DNA of 64,000 nucleotides from Candidatus Omnitrophota bacterium (lineage in GTDB: Bacteria; Omnitrophota; Gorgyraeia; Gygaellales; Profunditerraquicolaceae). The position numbers and the translations under genes are program-made. The notes below the pieces were generated by a model, which searched no databases, was not told the origin of the DNA, and saw only the letters and a program-made list of their open reading frames with translations. Shown in pieces: positions 10,692 to 38,434 of the stretch; positions within the stretch are counted from its first letter, which is position 1; each line of letters begins with the position of its first letter. Where the stretch lies: positions 193,482 through 257,481 of the forward strand of contig JBAYMG010000001.1 in assembly GCA_041663665.1 (NCBI GenBank). The letters are read 5' to 3'.

Positions 10692-11117
10692 TTGATTAAT
10701 AATGGAGGTAGCATGGCAGATAAGCTGGAAGGAAGAGAACGTAGGAAATCCGAGCGTATTGATGCTTCTTTTACTCTTACCTACTATGTCGAAAAGCCTT
10801 ATACTTTATGTATTAGCTTAGGTTTGGTGGGAAGCGTAGAGGCAGTAATGGTTAATTTAAGCGATTCCGGTATGGCAATTATAACCGATTATGATATTCC
10901 TCAGGGTGTTCAGCTTTATATTAAGTTTAACCTGATAAATATGCGTTTAAGCGGCGATGAGCGTTGGAGGTCAATGAAGATCACTGGGGATGTGGTTTCT
11001 AATGTACTCTTACCGAATAAAAGCCATAGAGTAGGTATTCATTTTGGGAAAATTTTAGAAGCGGATAGTGTAGCGATAAGGAATTTTGTGTTGTGTAATA
11101 AAATTCCTTCGGCATAA
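10692..11117 (+). CDS. PilZ domain protein
   Basis: RRKSER (RxxxR) and N-L-S-D-S-G (D/NxSxxG). Confidence 0.55.
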   Translation: MINNGGSMADKLEGRERRKSERIDASFTLTYYVEKPYTLCISLGLVGSVEAVMVNLSDSGMAIITDYDIPQGVQLYIKFNLINMRLSGDERWRSMKITGDVVSNVLLPNKSHRVGIHFGKILEADSVAIRNFVLCNKIPSA

Positions 11118-21581: not shown

Positions 21582-21923
21582 ATGAGTATTGAACGAAGAG
21601 AAGCCCCCAGGTTTTTATTAAATCTTTCCGTAAGTGAAATTAGCGGGCACGGATTACTGGGTAAGGTGGTAGATTTTTCCCGTAAAGGGATGAGAATAAT
21701 CCTGGATGCGCCTGCGCTTAGCGAGAGAACAGATATACAAATTGCAATTAATCGGCCGGACTATAATAAACAGATTTTTGTTATTGCTTATGTCGCCTGG
21801 ATAAAGCCTTTCGAAGGTAAATACGAAGCTGGTTTGAAATTCAGGAATATTCCTCCTGATGCTAAGGCAGATTTCTTGAACTATGGTTATAAATTGTGGT
21901 TAAAGAATAGGCTTTCTTGCTAG
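21582..21923 (+). CDS. PilZ domain protein
   Basis: REAPR (RxxxR) and D-F-S-R-K-G (DxSxxG). Confidence 0.55.
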   Translation: MSIERREAPRFLLNLSVSEISGHGLLGKVVDFSRKGMRIILDAPALSERTDIQIAINRPDYNKQIFVIAYVAWIKPFEGKYEAGLKFRNIPPDAKADFLNYGYKLWLKNRLSC

Positions 21924-23468: not shown

Positions 23469-23810
23469 ATGTTTGAACACAAACATCAAAAAGTAGCTCC
23501 TGTTCACGTTTTTATCAAGAGATTGGTTCTGTACATCGGCGTTGCCATTGTGCTTATCCTGGCTGCCCTGTGTATTGGGATTATCGGGTATCGTTATGTG
23601 GCTGGTTTGACTTGGATAGACGCGCTATTGAACGCATCCATGATCTTGGGAGGAATGGGGCCTGTGGATAAGCTCACTCAGCCGGCTGCAAAAATTTTTG
23701 CGTCAGCATACGCTCTTTTTAGCGGCCTTATCTTCATTGCGGTTATGAGTATTATCTTAACTCCTATCGTACACAGGATTCTTCATAAATTCCATGTCGA
23801 TGAGGAATAA
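23469..23810 (+). CDS. small integral membrane protein (3 TM)
   Basis: Hydrophobic segments; RBS GGGGAGAGG upstream. Confidence 0.45.
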   Translation: MFEHKHQKVAPVHVFIKRLVLYIGVAIVLILAALCIGIIGYRYVAGLTWIDALLNASMILGGMGPVDKLTQPAAKIFASAYALFSGLIFIAVMSIILTPIVHRILHKFHVDEE

Positions 23811-25119
23811 ACCTGGCTTCCCCGATCAGCTTCCGTCACATCTTGATATAAATGCTGAATTCGAATCGGCGTTTGATCTTATGGAACGCACTAAAGAATG
23901 CCTTTTTATTACAGGCAAAGCGGGCACTGGTAAGTCGACTCTGCTAAAATATTTTAAGGCGAATACCGGCAAGAGCATAATTGTTTTAGCTCCAACAGGT
24001 GTGGCGGCGGTTAATGTCGGCGGACAGACAATTCATTCGTTCTTTAGGCTTCCTCCAAAGATTATTCAAAAGGAGGTGATAAAACGCCTTAGGGATAGAA
24101 GCCTGTTTGAAAATCTTGAGATGATAATAATTGATGAGGTTTCGATGGTTCGTGCAGATCTTATGGATGGTATAGATTATGCGTTACGTTTAAATCGCGG
24201 AAAAATGAAGACGCCATTTGGCGGTATTCAAATGGTATTTTTTGGGGATCTTTTCCAATTGTCTCCTGTGGTTGAGAGCGAAGCAAGGAAGCTTTTGGAG
24301 GAGAGGTATACAAGTCCATATTTCTTTAGTGCTAAAGTATTTGACGATTGCAATATCAAGGCAATTGAATTATCGACTATATATAGGCAAAAAGACAGTT
24401 TATTTATGGAGCTTTTAAACCGGGTCAGAAATAAAGAGCACACCAAAGAAGATTTGGATACATTGAATAAAAATGTCCAAAAAGATATTGTGTCTTCCAG
24501 GAAAGACGCTACCGTGATTTTAACAACGACCAATAGCTTGGCAAGTGCAATAAATCAGGATCGTTTAGACGAGCTTCCTGGCAGAGAGATTGTCTATAGG
24601 GCTATGTCTACCGGTAAATTCGAAGAGCCGGCATATCCCACAGAAGGATCGTTAAAACTTAAAAAAGGCGCGCAGGTAATTTTGATAAAAAATGATCCGG
24701 ATAAGAGATGGGTGAACGGTACGCTGGCTAAGGTTGTGGCTTTGTCGAAAGATTCTATAGTTTTGGATGTTAATGGTGTGGCGTGCGATGTACCGGTTGC
24801 GAAGTGGCAGAAAATTGAGTATAGTTATAATGAGGTTGAAGGTAAGATAGAAGATACGGTCGTAGGGGAATTTGCGCAGTATCCTATAAAGCTGGCCTGG
24901 GCTATAACTATTCATAAGAGTCAGGGGCAGACATTTGATAAAGTTATAATTGACCTTGGGTATGGCGCTTTTACTCATGGCCAATTATATGTGGCGCTTA
25001 GCAGGTGCACTCGTTTGGATGGTATAAGATTTAAGCGCCCGGTGGTTAGTAGTGATGTCATATTTGATGAGCGTATTTATGAGTTTAATAACCGGTTTGT
25101 AGATTTATTTAGGGGGTAA
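23794..25119 (+). CDS. PIF1/RecD-family ATP-dependent DNA helicase
   Basis: GKAGTGKST Walker A, IIDEVSMV Walker B, IHKSQGQTFDKVII motif typical of Pif1/RecD2 (AAA_30 plus UvrD_C_2). Confidence 0.8.
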   Translation: MSMRNKPGFPDQLPSHLDINAEFESAFDLMERTKECLFITGKAGTGKSTLLKYFKANTGKSIIVLAPTGVAAVNVGGQTIHSFFRLPPKIIQKEVIKRLRDRSLFENLEMIIIDEVSMVRADLMDGIDYALRLNRGKMKTPFGGIQMVFFGDLFQLSPVVESEARKLLEERYTSPYFFSAKVFDDCNIKAIELSTIYRQKDSLFMELLNRVRNKEHTKEDLDTLNKNVQKDIVSSRKDATVILTTTNSLASAINQDRLDELPGREIVYRAMSTGKFEEPAYPTEGSLKLKKGAQVILIKNDPDKRWVNGTLAKVVALSKDSIVLDVNGVACDVPVAKWQKIEYSYNEVEGKIEDTVVGEFAQYPIKLAWAITIHKSQGQTFDKVIIDLGYGAFTHGQLYVALSRCTRLDGIRFKRPVVSSDVIFDERIYEFNNRFVDLFRG

Positions 25120-29847: not shown

Positions 29848-29879
29848 TTGACAGACCACACATTTGTGTGGTATATATA
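29848..29879 (+). promoter_or_regulatory. lexA promoter with palindromic operator: TTGACA -35, CCACACA-TT-TGTGTGG palindrome, TATATA -10
   Basis: TTGACA at 29848-29853; perfect 7-bp-arm palindrome at 29856-29871; TATATA immediately after; ATG at 29883, so the transcript is leaderless or near-leaderless. Confidence 0.55.
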
Positions 29880-31464: not shown

Positions 31465-31545
31465 AAATCCCGGTAAGTTTGATTAAATACCTTAAGCTCT
31501 GGTCTGAAATGAAATTTCGCGTAGCGGGAGTAGAAAGAAATTACC

Positions 31546-32652
31546 ATGATTTTACATGTTGATATGGATGCTTTTTTTGCTTCGATTGAACAGGCAATTA
31601 ATCCGCGGCTTAAGGATAAGCCTTTAATCGTTGGTTCACGCGGCAATAAAATGCACACTGTAGTTTGTGCGGCCAGTTACGCTGCCAAAGCTTTGGGTAT
31701 ATATTCCGGAATGCCTTCCAGGGAAGCATTTGCCAGATGTCCAAATTTAGAGTTTGTGGAAGCTGATCAATCTAAGTATATTTGGACTTCGGAGCAGATT
31801 TTTGAGCTTTTAAAAAGCTTTAATTTTCCCCTGAATTATGCCTCAATTGATGAGTTCCAAATGGACTTAGGTGCCCATGAAAACCCGGTAAGTTTGGGTA
31901 ACGAACTTCGAAAGCAGATCTATGCAGACTTTAACATTACTGCTTCAGTAGGCATTGCCAAGAATTGGCTTTTAGCAAAACTTGCTTCTAAGCTGAATAA
32001 ACCAGATGGCTTGGCTTTGATTAATGATGAAAATTTTGAGGCAGTTTTACGGAAGACTTCATTAGATGAATTATGCGGTATGGGCGGTAAAACCGGTCAA
32101 GTTTTTATTGCTCAGGGCTTAAAAACCTGCTGGGACTTATACCTAAACTTACCGGCTTTTTTTGATAATAATCCTAGTAAGTTTGATGAAAATCCCGGTA
32201 AGTCTAGTGAATTGCCTAAGTCGGTTAGTCATTCATATACTTTGCCAAAAGTTCAAATAAACCACCAGGTTATTCAGGCCTGGATTAGGCTTTTGGCTGA
32301 GATGGTTGGTACCAGGTTGCGGCAGCAAAATTTAGTTAGCGCAACTGTGCATCTTTGGTTAAATGGCCCGGAAATCGGTAATTTTGGAGCTCAGAAAACT
32401 TACCCAAATCAGGCCACAAATGATGGTTTCGAGATCTACCAGAGAGCTTCTAAGGTAATGGCTAGATTAGCCGCTAAAAATCCCAGAATTCGGGCAATTG
32501 GGGTTACCTGCAGCAGTCTTTCTTTAAGCGTCTATCAACCCTTGTTTAGTGAAGAAATCCGCAGGGAGGGCCTTATAAAGGCTTTAGACCGTATAAATAA
32601 CCGCTTCGGAGAGGGGTCAATTTATCCCGCAATAACTTCTTTTACCCGTTAA
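31546..32652 (+). CDS. dinB: DNA polymerase IV (Y-family translesion polymerase)
   Basis: ILHVDMDAFFASIEQ catalytic motif with Asp/Glu retained; 368 aa. Confidence 0.85.
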   Translation: MILHVDMDAFFASIEQAINPRLKDKPLIVGSRGNKMHTVVCAASYAAKALGIYSGMPSREAFARCPNLEFVEADQSKYIWTSEQIFELLKSFNFPLNYASIDEFQMDLGAHENPVSLGNELRKQIYADFNITASVGIAKNWLLAKLASKLNKPDGLALINDENFEAVLRKTSLDELCGMGGKTGQVFIAQGLKTCWDLYLNLPAFFDNNPSKFDENPGKSSELPKSVSHSYTLPKVQINHQVIQAWIRLLAEMVGTRLRQQNLVSATVHLWLNGPEIGNFGAQKTYPNQATNDGFEIYQRASKVMARLAAKNPRIRAIGVTCSSLSLSVYQPLFSEEIRREGLIKALDRINNRFGEGSIYPAITSFTR

Positions 32653-32754
32653 TAGTTAACAAAATCCCCGTAAAAAAATTTTTAATTAAAGGCAAAAAAT
32701 CTAGAGAAGATGGCGCATGTATTCCGCTTAAATTGTCAGGTATAAAATAACGCG

Positions 32755-32768
32755 GTAAGTTTAAGTAA
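32755..32768 (+). repeat. left arm of the 14-bp inverted repeat GTAAGTTTAAGTAA flanking dif
   Basis: Exact reverse-complement partner at 32928-32941. Confidence 0.7.
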
Positions 32769-32856
32769 AAAAGAAACGGCTTTTCCACAGCTTAAAAACA
32801 GGCTTTAGTAAAGTGTTATCTCCCATTGGTTTATGAACACTTAGCAAATACAGACA

Positions 32857-32884
32857 AGTTAACATAATGTACATTATAGGAAGT
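32857..32884 (-). other. dif: dif-like XerC/XerD chromosome dimer resolution site
   Basis: The reverse complement ACTTCCTATAATGTACATTATGTTAACT matches B. subtilis dif ACTTCCTAGAATATATATTATGTAAACT at 24 of 28 positions. Its XerD arm TTATGTTAACT matches E. coli TTATGTTAAAT at 10 of 11. It sits exactly at the convergent strand switch. Confidence 0.75.
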
Positions 32885-32927
32885 AGACTAAAAGGGCAAA
32901 ATAGACTAAAACTGCTCATGGTGCACT

Positions 32928-32941
32928 TACTTAAACTTACT
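32928..32941 (-). repeat. right arm of the inverted repeat (TTACTTAAACTTAC on +)
   Basis: Perfect 14-nt match to the revcomp of 32755-32768; abuts the stop codon of the DUF134 gene. Confidence 0.7.
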
Positions 32942-33301
32942 TCAATTTTTACTTGGTTTTGTGTTAGTTAAATTTATAGGATTTTGTTTTACATCCTGGC
33001 GGGAACTTAGTATATATTGGCCTCCTTGAATTCTTATGGCTGATCCGGTAGTTATCCCTTTAGCGATTAAACCTCTGGCTTTTTTTAAGATTCGGCTAAA
33101 GGTTTGTTGGGATATACGCATTGAGCTGGCTGCTTCTTTTTGGCTTAAATTTAAGCAATCGGCTAGCCTCAGGGCTTCAAATTCGTCCATTCTAAGCCCT
33201 ACTTCGTCTGGCCTGCCAGGCTTGCCTCTGGGGCTAAATTGGCTTATTTTAGGGTCAACTTTGACTATTCTATATTTCTTGGGTCTTCCGCGCGCTCGCA
33301 T
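32942..33301 (-). CDS. DUF134 (UPF0251) predicted DNA-binding protein
   Basis: RGRPKK...VKVDPKISQFSPRGKPG...LRMDEFEALRLADCLNLSQKEAASSMRISQQTFSRILKKAR...AIRIQGG fits the DUF134 pattern. Confidence 0.6.
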   Translation of the reverse strand: MRARGRPKKYRIVKVDPKISQFSPRGKPGRPDEVGLRMDEFEALRLADCLNLSQKEAASSMRISQQTFSRILKKARGLIAKGITTGSAIRIQGGQYILSSRQDVKQNPINLTNTKPSKN

Positions 33302-33312
33302 TAATTTTCCTC

Positions 33313-33387
33313 AAACTTACTTAAATTTAACGCCCAGGTTAATATGAGTACATACTCATAAGTAACATTTAAAAAGTATTTTGTCAA
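33313..33387 (-). promoter_or_regulatory. DUF134 upstream region: -35 TTGACA (revcomp of 33382-33387), palindrome ATGAGTACATACTCAT (33344-33359) and a third TTAAGTAAGTTT motif copy (33313-33328)
   Basis: All elements read directly from the sequence; the palindrome has 7-bp arms. Confidence 0.4.
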
Positions 33388-34779: not shown

Positions 34780-35106
34780 TTATAGGACTATTTTGTCCGA
34801 TATTTCGCTCACAACCGGTATACGGCTATAAACACCTAGCGCAGCCTGCATAATTCCCCAGACTGAAACTAAAAGGAATAAAACATAGCCGAAAATTCCG
34901 ATCAACCAGCCCAGGAAAGGTATGATTGATAAAATAAACGCGGTAACTTCCATAACGAAAAGCACCAGGCCTTGTCTGGCGTGGTAAAGAGCGAATTTAT
35001 TGCTTTTTTTAAGAATAAGCGTAATTATGCAGAGAAAAGAAATATAAGAAATTACTGCAAAAAATTTACCTTCGATAATTTCCTGTTCTTCGGGTGTGTG
35101 GGTCAT
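34780..35106 (-). CDS. DUF4870 membrane protein
   Basis: GKFFAVISYISFLCIITLILKKSNKFALYHARQGLVLF matches the DUF4870 core; 4-nt overlap with the ParA gene. Confidence 0.5.
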   Translation of the reverse strand: MTHTPEEQEIIEGKFFAVISYISFLCIITLILKKSNKFALYHARQGLVLFVMEVTAFILSIIPFLGWLIGIFGYVLFLLVSVWGIMQAALGVYSRIPVVSEISDKIVL

Positions 35107-36218
35107 TTATTTACCTCAAGTAGTGAATCCAGTGTTCCGTAGGTGTTTAGTTGAACTTGCGGGTTAGCCGGATCCTCGACCCAGTTTCCGTCGATAACAA
35201 ATCGGTAACGATATTTGCCGTCTTCCAGGTTTAGTTGTTTAGTCCAGCAGCCGTTAGATTGTTCCATTTTACTGCTTTCGTCAAGTTTCCAGCTGTTGAA
35301 TTCGCCTGCCAGATAAACTTCTTTGGCGTTTGGTGCTTGGATTGAAAGTTTAATCTCATTTAATTTTGGTAGGCTCTCTTGTATTTTTGGCAGATTTTCC
35401 TGGAGAATCACCTGCATGCGTTTTTCGAATATTTTTGGCAGATTAGCAGCCGGTTGAGGCGTTGTTTCCTGAGTGATAATTTCACGTGAAAGGCTGAAAT
35501 AGTCTTTTGCCCCGCGGCAGTATTTATCATAGGCAAAAACGTGCAGGCCTTCATTTTGAGCTTCCTTAAGTTTTACGTTTACATGGATAATATTTGAAAA
35601 CATTTTATTGCTATAATCGCTTTTAATTTTTTCCAGCATTTTGAATGAATGTGCTAATCGAGAATCAAAATTTGTAACTAAGACACCAAAGTCTACTTTG
35701 TGGCCTAATCTTTCGGTGATTAAATCAATAATACTGGTAAGTTGAGATAATCCTTCAAGTGAAAATCTGCTGGCTTCAACCGGAATAATGATTTCGCTTG
35801 CTGCACGGATGGCGTTAATGGTTAAGATGCCCAGGTTCGGCGGGCAGTCAATTAAGATGTAATCATAGTTAGAACCGAAATTTTTTAATATATCCCAGAG
35901 TCGGGATTCACGGCCGATCTCTCCGCTTAATTCCTGCTCAAGCGTGCTTAAGATTATTGAGGATGGTGCGATATCAAAATTTTCGCCGAAGTTTTGGATA
36001 ATATCTCCCAGGGAGCTTTTTTTATGGGCGATTTTTGATAAGACATTGTAGATACTTAGATCGGCTTTAATATTTAAGCCGCTGGTTGCGTGTGACTGCG
36101 GATCAAGGTCAATGAGTAAAACTTTACGGTTATTTGTTGCCAATGCTGCAGCTAGGTTTATCGAGGTAGTTGTTTTACCGCAGCCGCCTTTTTGGTTGGC
36201 AATTGAGATAATTCGCAT
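35103..36218 (-). CDS. ParA/MinD-family ATPase fused to a C-terminal AMPK-beta-type glycogen-binding domain (CBM48)
   Basis: Deviant Walker A KGGCGKTT. The C-terminal KEVYLAGEFNSWK...EDGKYRYRFVIDGNWVEDPANPQ...GTLDSLLEV closely parallels the AMPK beta GBD (KEVYLSGSFNNW...EGEHQYKFFVDGQW..DP). Start at the ATG at 36218, preceded by GGGAGGG. Confidence 0.8.
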   Translation of the reverse strand: MRIISIANQKGGCGKTTTSINLAAALATNNRKVLLIDLDPQSHATSGLNIKADLSIYNVLSKIAHKKSSLGDIIQNFGENFDIAPSSIILSTLEQELSGEIGRESRLWDILKNFGSNYDYILIDCPPNLGILTINAIRAASEIIIPVEASRFSLEGLSQLTSIIDLITERLGHKVDFGVLVTNFDSRLAHSFKMLEKIKSDYSNKMFSNIIHVNVKLKEAQNEGLHVFAYDKYCRGAKDYFSLSREIITQETTPQPAANLPKIFEKRMQVILQENLPKIQESLPKLNEIKLSIQAPNAKEVYLAGEFNSWKLDESSKMEQSNGCWTKQLNLEDGKYRYRFVIDGNWVEDPANPQVQLNTYGTLDSLLEVNK

Positions 36219-36281
36219 TAGCAATCCCTCCCTGCGCAAGATGCGCTTACCGGTTTTTCTTGATATAAAAACCGGCGATGA

Positions 36282-36889: not shown

Positions 36890-38434
36890 TCAAGGGGTTA
36901 AGGGCTCTGTTAAGTATGCCGGCTGGTCAATTTCAAGCAGCGTATATAGATTGGATAAATGCAGCCTAAATAACTTGTCAAATGAGCCGTCCGGGTCCTC
37001 TCCATACCACCAAAACCAGTCGCTTCCTTCTAGGATATACATTTGTTTTAAGGCAAGTTCGCTGGGGGTTTTTGTGTTTTCTAACGCTTTCCGAGCGCTA
37101 GCCAGCCATTCCCAGGCTTTTACTTTGTAAGGATTGCCAATCCATTTACCGAATTCACCGTAAATCCAGGATCCTGCGCTTAAGCGTTTTATTTGGCGCT
37201 TGGCAGGATTAAGTTTTAGATAGTCGCTTATGGTTGTAGTTTTGATAAAATCGCTTTCCGAAATCTTTTGGTAAAATAATTCCAGAAAATCATGTCCATC
37301 GTTACGAAAATATTCCCAGGCATTCTCCCCATCCATGGCGATAGTGACTAAGGTGTCTTTATTTTTAAATGCCTTATGAATATTTTCTAAATGGGACATG
37401 AAGTTATTTACAGCATCGGTTTCTTTCATATTGCTGTAAGAAAATCCGATTAAATCTGAAAGATTGCGGTCACGGAAAACTATGCTAAGCTCTCCCTCTT
37501 TTCTTTTTAATAAGTGCGGTTGATAAAGCAGCTGGGTGTTACGCTTATTTAATTTTAAGGATTTAAATAGAATTGCCTCGTCGGTAACAATCCATTTTAT
37601 ACCGGAATTAATTATAAATGGCAGGATGTGTTCGCAGACTCCTTCTTCCGAAGGCCACATGCCAAGGGGTGTATTGCCAAATCTATCTTTATAAAATTTT
37701 GCGGCGCTATCAATTTGGTATTTTGCGTCTTGGGGGTAATTGAATTCTACTTTAGGCAGAACAGTTTTTTTGTTAGCTTCTTTGGCGATGTTGGTACTGT
37801 AAAGTAACGGTAAAATCGGGTGATAATATGGGGTAACGCTTATCTCAATTTGGTTATTTAAGGAAAACTTCCGGTAAGCCGGGATGATTTCTTTTAATAT
37901 TTGGAGTTGTATATTTAAAACAATTTGTTTGTCCTCTTCGCTAAAGAATCTTTCCTTAAGTACGATTTTTTTAAGTTCAGGTATATTTTGCCTAAAAGTT
38001 GGATCGATCCAGGCTAAATTAAAGTAAAGTTGCAGGTCTAGGAAATCTTGGGTTAAAAATTCATGATTGCGTTGTTTTTTTAAGGCTAGTTCATAATAAC
38101 GCGGGAAATTTAGAATTACCTTTTCTTTATTGATTGAGAAAAAATTTTGGAGGATAAATTCTTTATCGGTATTAGTAAGTAAGGCTGCCGGTTTTTGGGT
38201 TAGTTGGCTAAATTTATCTTTGACCAGGTTATTATTGTAATCTTCAATCTGTTCAAATAAAGACGGGACAACATTAAAAGTTTGTTTGATCTTGGGAAAT
38301 TTTTCCAGGATTTGCACCATATCCAGGTAATCTTTAATTCCGTGCAATCTTACCCAAGGAAGGGTGCTCTCTTGGGTTAAGAGGTTCTTGTAATACGGTT
38401 GATGCATGTGGAAGATAAAGGCGAGGTTAATCAT
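36890..38434 (-). CDS. glycoside hydrolase family 57 (alpha-glucan branching/4-alpha-glucanotransferase-like)
   Basis: N-terminal FIFHMHQPYY, the GH57 HQP signature; 514 aa. Confidence 0.8.
   Translation of the reverse strand: MINLAFIFHMHQPYYKNLLTQESTLPWVRLHGIKDYLDMVQILEKFPKIKQTFNVVPSLFEQIEDYNNNLVKDKFSQLTQKPAALLTNTDKEFILQNFFSINKEKVILNFPRYYELALKKQRNHEFLTQDFLDLQLYFNLAWIDPTFRQNIPELKKIVLKERFFSEEDKQIVLNIQLQILKEIIPAYRKFSLNNQIEISVTPYYHPILPLLYSTNIAKEANKKTVLPKVEFNYPQDAKYQIDSAAKFYKDRFGNTPLGMWPSEEGVCEHILPFIINSGIKWIVTDEAILFKSLKLNKRNTQLLYQPHLLKRKEGELSIVFRDRNLSDLIGFSYSNMKETDAVNNFMSHLENIHKAFKNKDTLVTIAMDGENAWEYFRNDGHDFLELFYQKISESDFIKTTTISDYLKLNPAKRQIKRLSAGSWIYGEFGKWIGNPYKVKAWEWLASARKALENTKTPSELALKQMYILEGSDWFWWYGEDPDGSFDKLFRLHLSNLYTLLEIDQPAYLTEPLTP

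Follow-up and report, generated by a model that had tools for sequence, protein, structure and literature searches.

Our findings identify a 28-bp site that is very probably the chromosomal dif of a Candidatus Omnitrophota bacterium, at which gene orientation converges and from which the shift point of the GC skew lies more than 31 kb away, past the right end of the window (by which we mean the whole stretch of 64,000 nucleotides that was analysed). The site is a classical XerC/D-type site, a well-known kind of element that is here found in an uncultured phylum, and it thereby extends this class to a group that stands outside the published dif surveys; these surveys failed for the Planctomycetes, which are related to the Omnitrophota (PMC3025954). 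In practical terms, dif provides a simple landmark for orienting the contigs of Omnitrophota metagenome-assembled genomes (MAGs).

Architecture and gene context of the site

The site reads ACTTCCTATAATGTACATTATGTTAACT on the minus strand, the reverse complement of 32857-32884 (Table 1), and has the 11-6-11 layout of dif, with imperfectly inverted 11-bp arms around a 6-bp centre; 20 of its 28 positions read the same on its reverse complement. When compared with reference sequences taken from Kono et al. 2011 (PMC3025954), it agrees with the dif of B. subtilis at 24 of 28 positions (left arm 10/11, core 4/6, right arm 10/11), the opening eight bases ACTTCCTA being the same in both, and with the dif of E. 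coli at 21 of 28, including 10 of 11 in the XerD arm. Elsewhere in the window, no 28-mer exceeds 20/28 in the comparison with B. subtilis or 19/28 in that with E. coli. The two figures given by the first-pass annotation, 24/28 to B. subtilis and 10/11 for the E. coli XerD arm, were thus reproduced on recomputation with the published sequences, and the core that it had called palindromic is a perfect palindrome. Such a core is unusual, and the polarity of the site is set nonetheless by its unequal arms. The 28-mer has its sole match in the 64-kb window at up to three mismatches, dinucleotide-preserving shuffles yielded no match to it, and the second-best 28-mer of the window reaches only 16 of the 22 arm positions; a second dif-like site is absent from the 31 kb on either side. 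A direct repeat (AAGTAGACTAAAA / AAATAGACTAAAA, window 32881-32911) begins within the left arm and is not kept in relatives.

On the main strands, open reading frames of at least 100 amino acids all lie on the plus strand up to 32652 and all on the minus strand from 32942, and dif therefore occupies the window's only convergent junction. Forty plus-strand genes meet 29 minus-strand genes here across a non-coding gap of 289 bp, which bears out the claim that the site sits in the sole long convergent gap, then put at 290 bp. A small open reading frame that runs across dif (32761-32919) is open in one relative (L077) and is closed right after dif in another (L038), and on the latter ground we reject it as non-coding. 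Scanning the gap for promoter and terminator consensus sequences gave no more matches than are found in shuffles; a TTGACA-N16/17-TATAT promoter directed away from dif is present in some relatives and absent from the window. By Pfam annotation, the genes to the left of dif are accessory ones (PilZ proteins, rubrerythrin, CstA and a Pif1-like helicase), after which come, towards dif, lexA, a MEDS-domain gene, a hypothetical gene and, as the final member of this array, dinB. To the right stand the DUF134 gene, an epimerase, a ParA-CBM48 fusion, a GH57 enzyme and an alginate-export porin, with a tRNA-Arg gene among them, followed farther out by a sigma-70 factor, PPDK, class II aminoacyl-tRNA synthetases, panB/panE, recO, ybeY, phoH, aspS, hisS, dnaE and guaA; the class II synthetases number three (AspRS, HisRS and one of unassigned type). 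Pfam annotation of the 64-kb window found neither a tyrosine recombinase or Xer gene nor any integrase, phage, plasmid or mobile-element gene, and the Omnitrophota loci examined are likewise free of tyrosine recombinases to a distance of about 4-10 kb from dif. The protein that the DUF134 gene encodes is identical to an NCBI entry for a Candidatus Omnitrophota MAG, carried there by a 280-kb contig.

Table 1. Positions of the dif site, its parts and neighbouring features in the window
Feature	Position	Strand	Remarks
28-bp dif site	32857..32884	-	ACTTCCTATAA / TGTACA / TTATGTTAACT; orthologous sites in relatives
Left arm ACTTCCTATAA	32874..32884	-	XerC/CodV-type by analogy with E. coli and B. 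subtilis
Central hexamer TGTACA	32868..32873		perfect palindrome
Right arm TTATGTTAACT	32857..32867	-	XerD-type; 10/11 to E. coli XerD arm TTATGTTAAAT
DUF134 (UPF0251) helix-turn-helix gene	32942..33301	-	Pfam PF02001, E = 4.9e-24; converges on dif left arm
dinB (Y-family polymerase)	31546..32652	+	Pfam IMS + IMS_C; converges on XerD arm
Conserved 170-bp block	32687..32856	-	abuts XerD arm; from alignment; clade-specific
DnaA-box-like motif TTTTCCACA (TTWTNCACA)	32781..32789	+	66-69 bp from dif end
16-mer CGGTAAGTTTAAGTAA (tandem TAAGTW hexamers)	32753..32768	+	88 bp from dif
16-mer copy, other side of dif	32927..32942	-	dif -42; specific to the window's genome
16-mer copy in DUF134 5' leader	33317..33332	-	kept in relatives, -410 to -443 from dif
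16-mer copy upstream of dinB	31471..31486	+	window match
16-mer copy inside dinB	31886-31901	+	window match
16-mer copy inside dinB	32139-32154	-	window match

Several features of the neighbouring genes deserve a separate record. The left accessory block includes three stand-alone PilZ-domain proteins and the Pif1-type helicase (447-794, 10692-11117, 21582-21923 and 23794-25119). On the right, a ParA/MinD-type ATPase carries a fused C-terminal glycogen-binding module (AMPK1_CBM / CBM48), and the GH57 glycoside hydrolase lies one gene away from it (35103-36239 and 36890-38434, minus strand, cover the fusion and GH57); the pair is kept in relatives and could represent a system that positions glycogen granules. 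Between the -35 (TTGACA) and -10 (TATATA) elements of the lexA promoter lies a perfect palindrome, CCACACATTTGTGTGG (29856-29871), and CACACAWWTGTGTG occurs upstream of lexA in eight of nine sequences checked, the window counted. We propose this palindrome as a candidate SOS (LexA) box of this Omnitrophota clade, and we know of no LexA box that resembles it. Another palindrome, ATGAGTAnGTACTCAT (33344-33359, minus strand), stands just downstream of the TTGACA-N17-TAnTTA promoter of the DUF134 gene and is followed by AATAACC..GGCGTTAAA..GGTAAGTTYAAGTAA and then by the DUF134 start codon, an arrangement that is kept in many relatives and looks like an operator or leader for autoregulation.

Conservation of the site among relatives

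A genome scan with both dif arms, in which the core was left free, returned at least 120 contigs from at least 120 genomes, with one site per contig bar one assembly artefact: in L081 (3250-3432), two identical sites with their flanks surround a run of N, and we reject this tandem dif as a product of scaffolding. Among the matches listed are many Omnitrophota MAGs, and others are labelled Bacilli, Izemoplasmatales and Planctomycetales. Thirty-seven Omnitrophota-type loci among these listed matches have a DUF134 homolog no more than 400 bp from dif, invariably on the side of the ACTTCC arm (the left arm, which in relatives always faces the DUF134 gene) and always converging on dif; the homologs in dif-linked loci are 46-84% identical when the window's own genome is left out. 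In 18 of the listed loci dinB is found 168-238 bp from dif on the side opposite to DUF134, where the neighbour is often the lexA-dinB operon. One locus with DUF134 next to dif, L020, belongs to the complete Omnitrophota chromosome OY759724.1, and on ENA contig k141_749676, 606 kb in length, dif is found at about 377 kb. Both of these sets were retrieved by the arm pattern itself. For an independent sample, relatives were therefore chosen solely through homology of the DUF134 protein, which gave seven loci (L150-L156) on four distinct contigs, 68-606 kb in length. Each of the seven has a single site that matches 21-22 of the 22 arm positions and is unchanged in position and orientation, so that the conservation of the arms is not a product of the search pattern. 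The flanking genes converge on dif in 28 of 30 clade loci, and the arms are invariant across relatives though the surrounding intergenic DNA has diverged. Taken as a whole, these comparative data are strong evidence for what would be a functional, single-copy chromosomal site.

The core is more variable than the arms. In the closest relatives it reads TATATC, TATATG or TATACA, and across the clade it mostly follows T-R-T-A-Y-N. The exact 28-mer of the window occurs once in each of two contigs of 312 and 704 kb (L123 and L124; Ga0247842_10000028 and Ga0247841_10000005), which belong to a second Omnitrophota species that has 43% GC, is 68% identical to the window at the nucleotide level and shares its synteny. 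The closest relatives of both the window and this second species have the core TATATC, and it would seem that the palindromic TGTACA either originated on two occasions or was transferred; given the predominance of T-R-T-A-Y-N in the clade, two species may plausibly have evolved it independently.

Two further groups of arm matches were recorded. In L012, L018, L043, L074 and about 30 other loci, from uncultured MAGs of the Bacilli/Mollicutes type, the core is TTGATA, an xerD-like recombinase gene lies 1-4 kb from dif and is followed by a gene that we take, from its N-terminus, to be deoB; the GC3 skew in these loci is 0.3-0.6 with the same sign on both sides of dif, and the genes converge nonetheless. 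In L012 and L018 the site is inverted relative to the same flanking genes. Both arms are also present, with other cores (e.g., TAAACA and TAAATG), in 24 IMG/VR viral contigs (L125-L148), where many of the sites lie near contig ends, in co-oriented gene arrays and other non-convergent contexts, and where they are probably attachment sites or junctions of Xer-exploiting elements.

Because the viral contigs share the arms, arm sequence alone is no proof of a chromosomal role. The site might then be the attachment or junction site of an Xer-exploiting integrative element (IMEX or phage), or a plasmid-type multimer resolution site, and its conserved 170-bp flank is indeed reminiscent of the accessory sequences of cer and psi. 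We nevertheless consider such an origin very improbable, since the window has no second dif-like site and no integrase, phage or plasmid genes, its flanks consist of chromosomal housekeeping and SOS genes whose synteny is kept across many species, and the conserved flank adjoins the XerD side, unlike that of cer and psi, whose accessory sequences lie on the XerC side. Integration of an IMEX or phage at dif was likewise rejected for want of a flanking pair of sites and of mobile-element genes. Still less credible is a chance AT-rich near-palindrome, or a functionless relic, that merely resembles dif: the AT-richness of the region speaks for it and nothing more, and it is at odds with the empty shuffles, with the poor second-best 28-mer and with arms that stay constant in diverged surroundings. 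A chromosomal dif is the reading that we retain.

Strand composition and the replication terminus

The raw GC skew drops at dif from about +0.2 to about 0, and it does so because the coding strand changes there. At third codon positions the coding-strand skew (GC3) is +0.248 in the left genes, of which 38 out of 40 have a positive value, and -0.243 in the right genes, where all 29 are negative. On the plus strand this reads +0.248 to the left and +0.243 to the right of dif, and the plus-strand value of each 8-kb bin between 1 and 64000 falls in the range of +0.20 to +0.31. At fourfold degenerate sites the coding-strand skew is +0.115 to the left of dif and -0.306 to its right, which translates into a strand effect that on the plus strand favours G over C by about +0.21 and T over A by about 0.13, and the skew of intergenic DNA decomposes as these sites do. 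Thus, neither a skew extremum nor a replication-type switch was found by GC3 in 8-kb bins anywhere in the window, that is, up to 31 kb from dif. With the same method the sign does switch at dif in the controls, namely E. coli MG1655 (+0.037/-0.038), a Bacillus (L019, +0.31/-0.20) and L075 (+0.12/-0.12).

The polarity of the window is shared by L077, L041, L150, L153 and L155, in which the coding strand is C3-rich on the DUF134 side and G3-rich on the dinB side. Synonymous sites in these five relatives are saturated relative to the window, and for this reason the polarity must be old and a recent rearrangement is excluded. A simple inversion also cannot yield the mismatch between orientation and skew, because genes and skew would then be flipped as one. 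In Omnitrophota that are more distantly related, for example L092 and L020, the polarity is the opposite one, and over the 4 kb on each side of dif the skew runs in one direction in 16 of 22 informative clade loci and switches cleanly in none. By its composition, the plus strand has served as leading strand to the left and to the right of dif alike, which places the shift point of the skew past the window's right end, at a distance of more than 31 kb. What dif marks is the convergence of gene orientation and not the point where forks met over evolutionary time.

The first-pass annotation had placed dif exactly at the replication terminus, with the forks of both replichores meeting at about 32.87 kb, and had named a GC-skew extremum at this position as the check. 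Its recognition of an XerC/D-type dif standing exactly at the gene-orientation convergence holds, whereas the pinning of the terminus by dif is not supported: at third codon positions there is no extremum at 32.87 kb or elsewhere in the window. What recommends an exact terminus is the perfect convergence of gene orientation, the change of slope in the raw skew at dif and the circumstance that the right-hand housekeeping genes would then be co-oriented with replication. Forks that passed through dif would have met 29 consecutive genes head-on for a long time, an unusual arrangement for a set that includes dnaE, the three class II aminoacyl-tRNA synthetases, the sigma-70 factor and PPDK; the orientation of dnaE, the synthetases and the sigma factor is anchored on dif, and their composition is that of genes long on the lagging strand. 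Against an exact terminus stand plus-strand GC3 skews of the same sign and size on the two sides, the agreement of fourfold sites, intergenic DNA and every 8-kb bin that there is no switch, the same polarity in relatives with saturated synonymous sites, and the failure of a simple inversion to separate genes from skew. An exact terminus at dif is therefore improbable in our judgement. In the survey of Kono et al. the distance between dif and the shift point of the skew amounts at one sigma to 0-1.39% of genome length and stays below 3% in the outliers, and the authors concluded that termination occurs near dif and not at dif (PMC3025954). As offsets there reach 1.4-3%, the known range accommodates an offset greater than 31 kb in a genome of a few Mb, and the missing switch thus lowers the claim of an exact terminus and not the identity of the site as dif. 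These results also carry a caution of a general kind: where gene orientation switches, an inflection of the raw GC skew cannot be taken as evidence for a terminus, and the skew has to be computed by codon position.

Flanking block, proposed mechanism and comparison with known systems

A profile of the conserved block next to the XerD arm (nhmmer, dif excluded) was matched in 36 sequences, once in each, always directly at the XerD arm and nowhere else. Its landmarks are an A/T tract followed by TTGACA, the motif TGTGNAWAA (the reverse complement of TTWTNCACA) at +66 to +69 from the dif end in 29 of 31 loci, and TTACTTAAACTTACCG at +88, an offset that recurs in relatives. A structured RNA in this flank was rejected, as RNAalifold gave a consensus with neither pairs outside the dif arms nor covariation, and as a search of Rfam gave nothing at gathering thresholds and one chance-level match when relaxed (E = 5.6). 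The motif at +66 to +69 varies across loci only at its W and N positions, and by its consensus and its conservation it qualifies as a putative DnaA box. It is a single box near dif, and the number of such motifs in the whole window (10, with 7.9 expected) is at chance level. The 16-mer, by comparison with an expectation of 0.95, has eight matches in the window at up to three mismatches, six of which fall within 31471-33332. Five of these six clustered copies point toward dif, and the 14-bp core of the copy at 32927..32942 forms a perfect inverted repeat with 32755-32768. Save for that of this copy, the positions in the cluster come back in relatives. The copies look like protein-binding sites, and the DUF134 protein may be proposed as their binder, as a hypothesis only. 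A fork trap of the Tus/Ter or RTP/Ter type, which the polar cluster of 16-mers might call to mind, was excluded because the skew does not switch at dif. No covarying operator was found in distant DUF134-linked clades. Literature searches returned only unrelated DUF134x families among the matches listed for DUF134, and nothing relevant on DnaA boxes near dif.

These features invite the speculation that the DUF134 gene, dif and the 170-bp block form a module of about 0.7 kb that recruits DUF134 and DnaA to control or time Xer recombination, that dif anchors gene polarity and is routinely traversed by forks, and that dimer resolution and fork fusion are stably uncoupled. The tandem TAAGTW sites of the proposed module recur both in the leader of DUF134 and around dinB, an SOS gene. 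We regard this proposal as unlikely. Even so, strict convergence without a skew switch, together with the linkage of DUF134, dif and the block, offers a modest, testable lead on terminus organization and on a linkage between SOS and dimer resolution.

For the site itself, the mode of action can be sketched by analogy with characterized systems, the partner enzymes being assumed. A XerC-type recombinase would bind ACTTCCTATAA and a XerD-type recombinase TTATGTTAACT, the two dif sites of a chromosome dimer would synapse at the closing septum, and FtsK, translocating toward dif, would activate XerD. Two pairs of strand exchanges across the TGTACA core would then convert the dimer into monomers. 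The gene ftsK is conserved across the PVC superphylum, including the Omnitrophota (PMC12283558). As for polar words that might orient FtsK, the known KOPS and SRS are too rare in 64 kb, and skewed words are inseparable from the coding-strand bias. A literature search on Omnitrophota and XerD returned nothing relevant.

Among known systems, the closest likeness is to the dif of B. subtilis (CodV/RipX) and of E. coli (XerC/XerD, activated by FtsK), which are, as here, 28-bp sites of 11-6-11 layout in non-coding DNA, one per contig. The Omnitrophota site differs from both in its perfectly palindromic TGTACA core, in the absence of a skew switch at the site and in its place within a clade-conserved module of DUF134, dif and 170-bp block, with recombinases not observed in the window. 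It recalls cer and psi in that a core Xer site is joined by a conserved flank of roughly 170-190 bp that resembles a set of protein-binding sites. In contrast to these plasmid sites, its context is chromosomal, its flank lies on the XerD-arm side, no ArgR, PepA or ArcA motifs were recognised in it, and there is no evidence of a topological filter. With XerS/difSL and XerH/difH it shares genetic linkage, across a clade, to a conserved neighbour gene; here, however, the neighbour encodes a small helix-turn-helix protein of the DUF134 type in place of a recombinase, the surrounding 31 kb are devoid of recombinase genes and the arms are of the classical XerC/D type. A single-recombinase system of this kind was rejected, since no tyrosine recombinase adjoins the site, and the classical arms accord with this. 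There are also precedents for a dif that is offset from the end point of replication, as is that of B. subtilis with respect to terC. In Pseudoalteromonas chromids, which replicate unidirectionally, dif2 adjoins ori2 (PMC7858055). As in these cases and in the survey of Kono et al., the Omnitrophota dif lies off the skew shift point, with skew of the same sign on both sides; what sets it apart from them is that gene orientation flips exactly at dif without a flip of the skew, along at least 31 kb of housekeeping genes.
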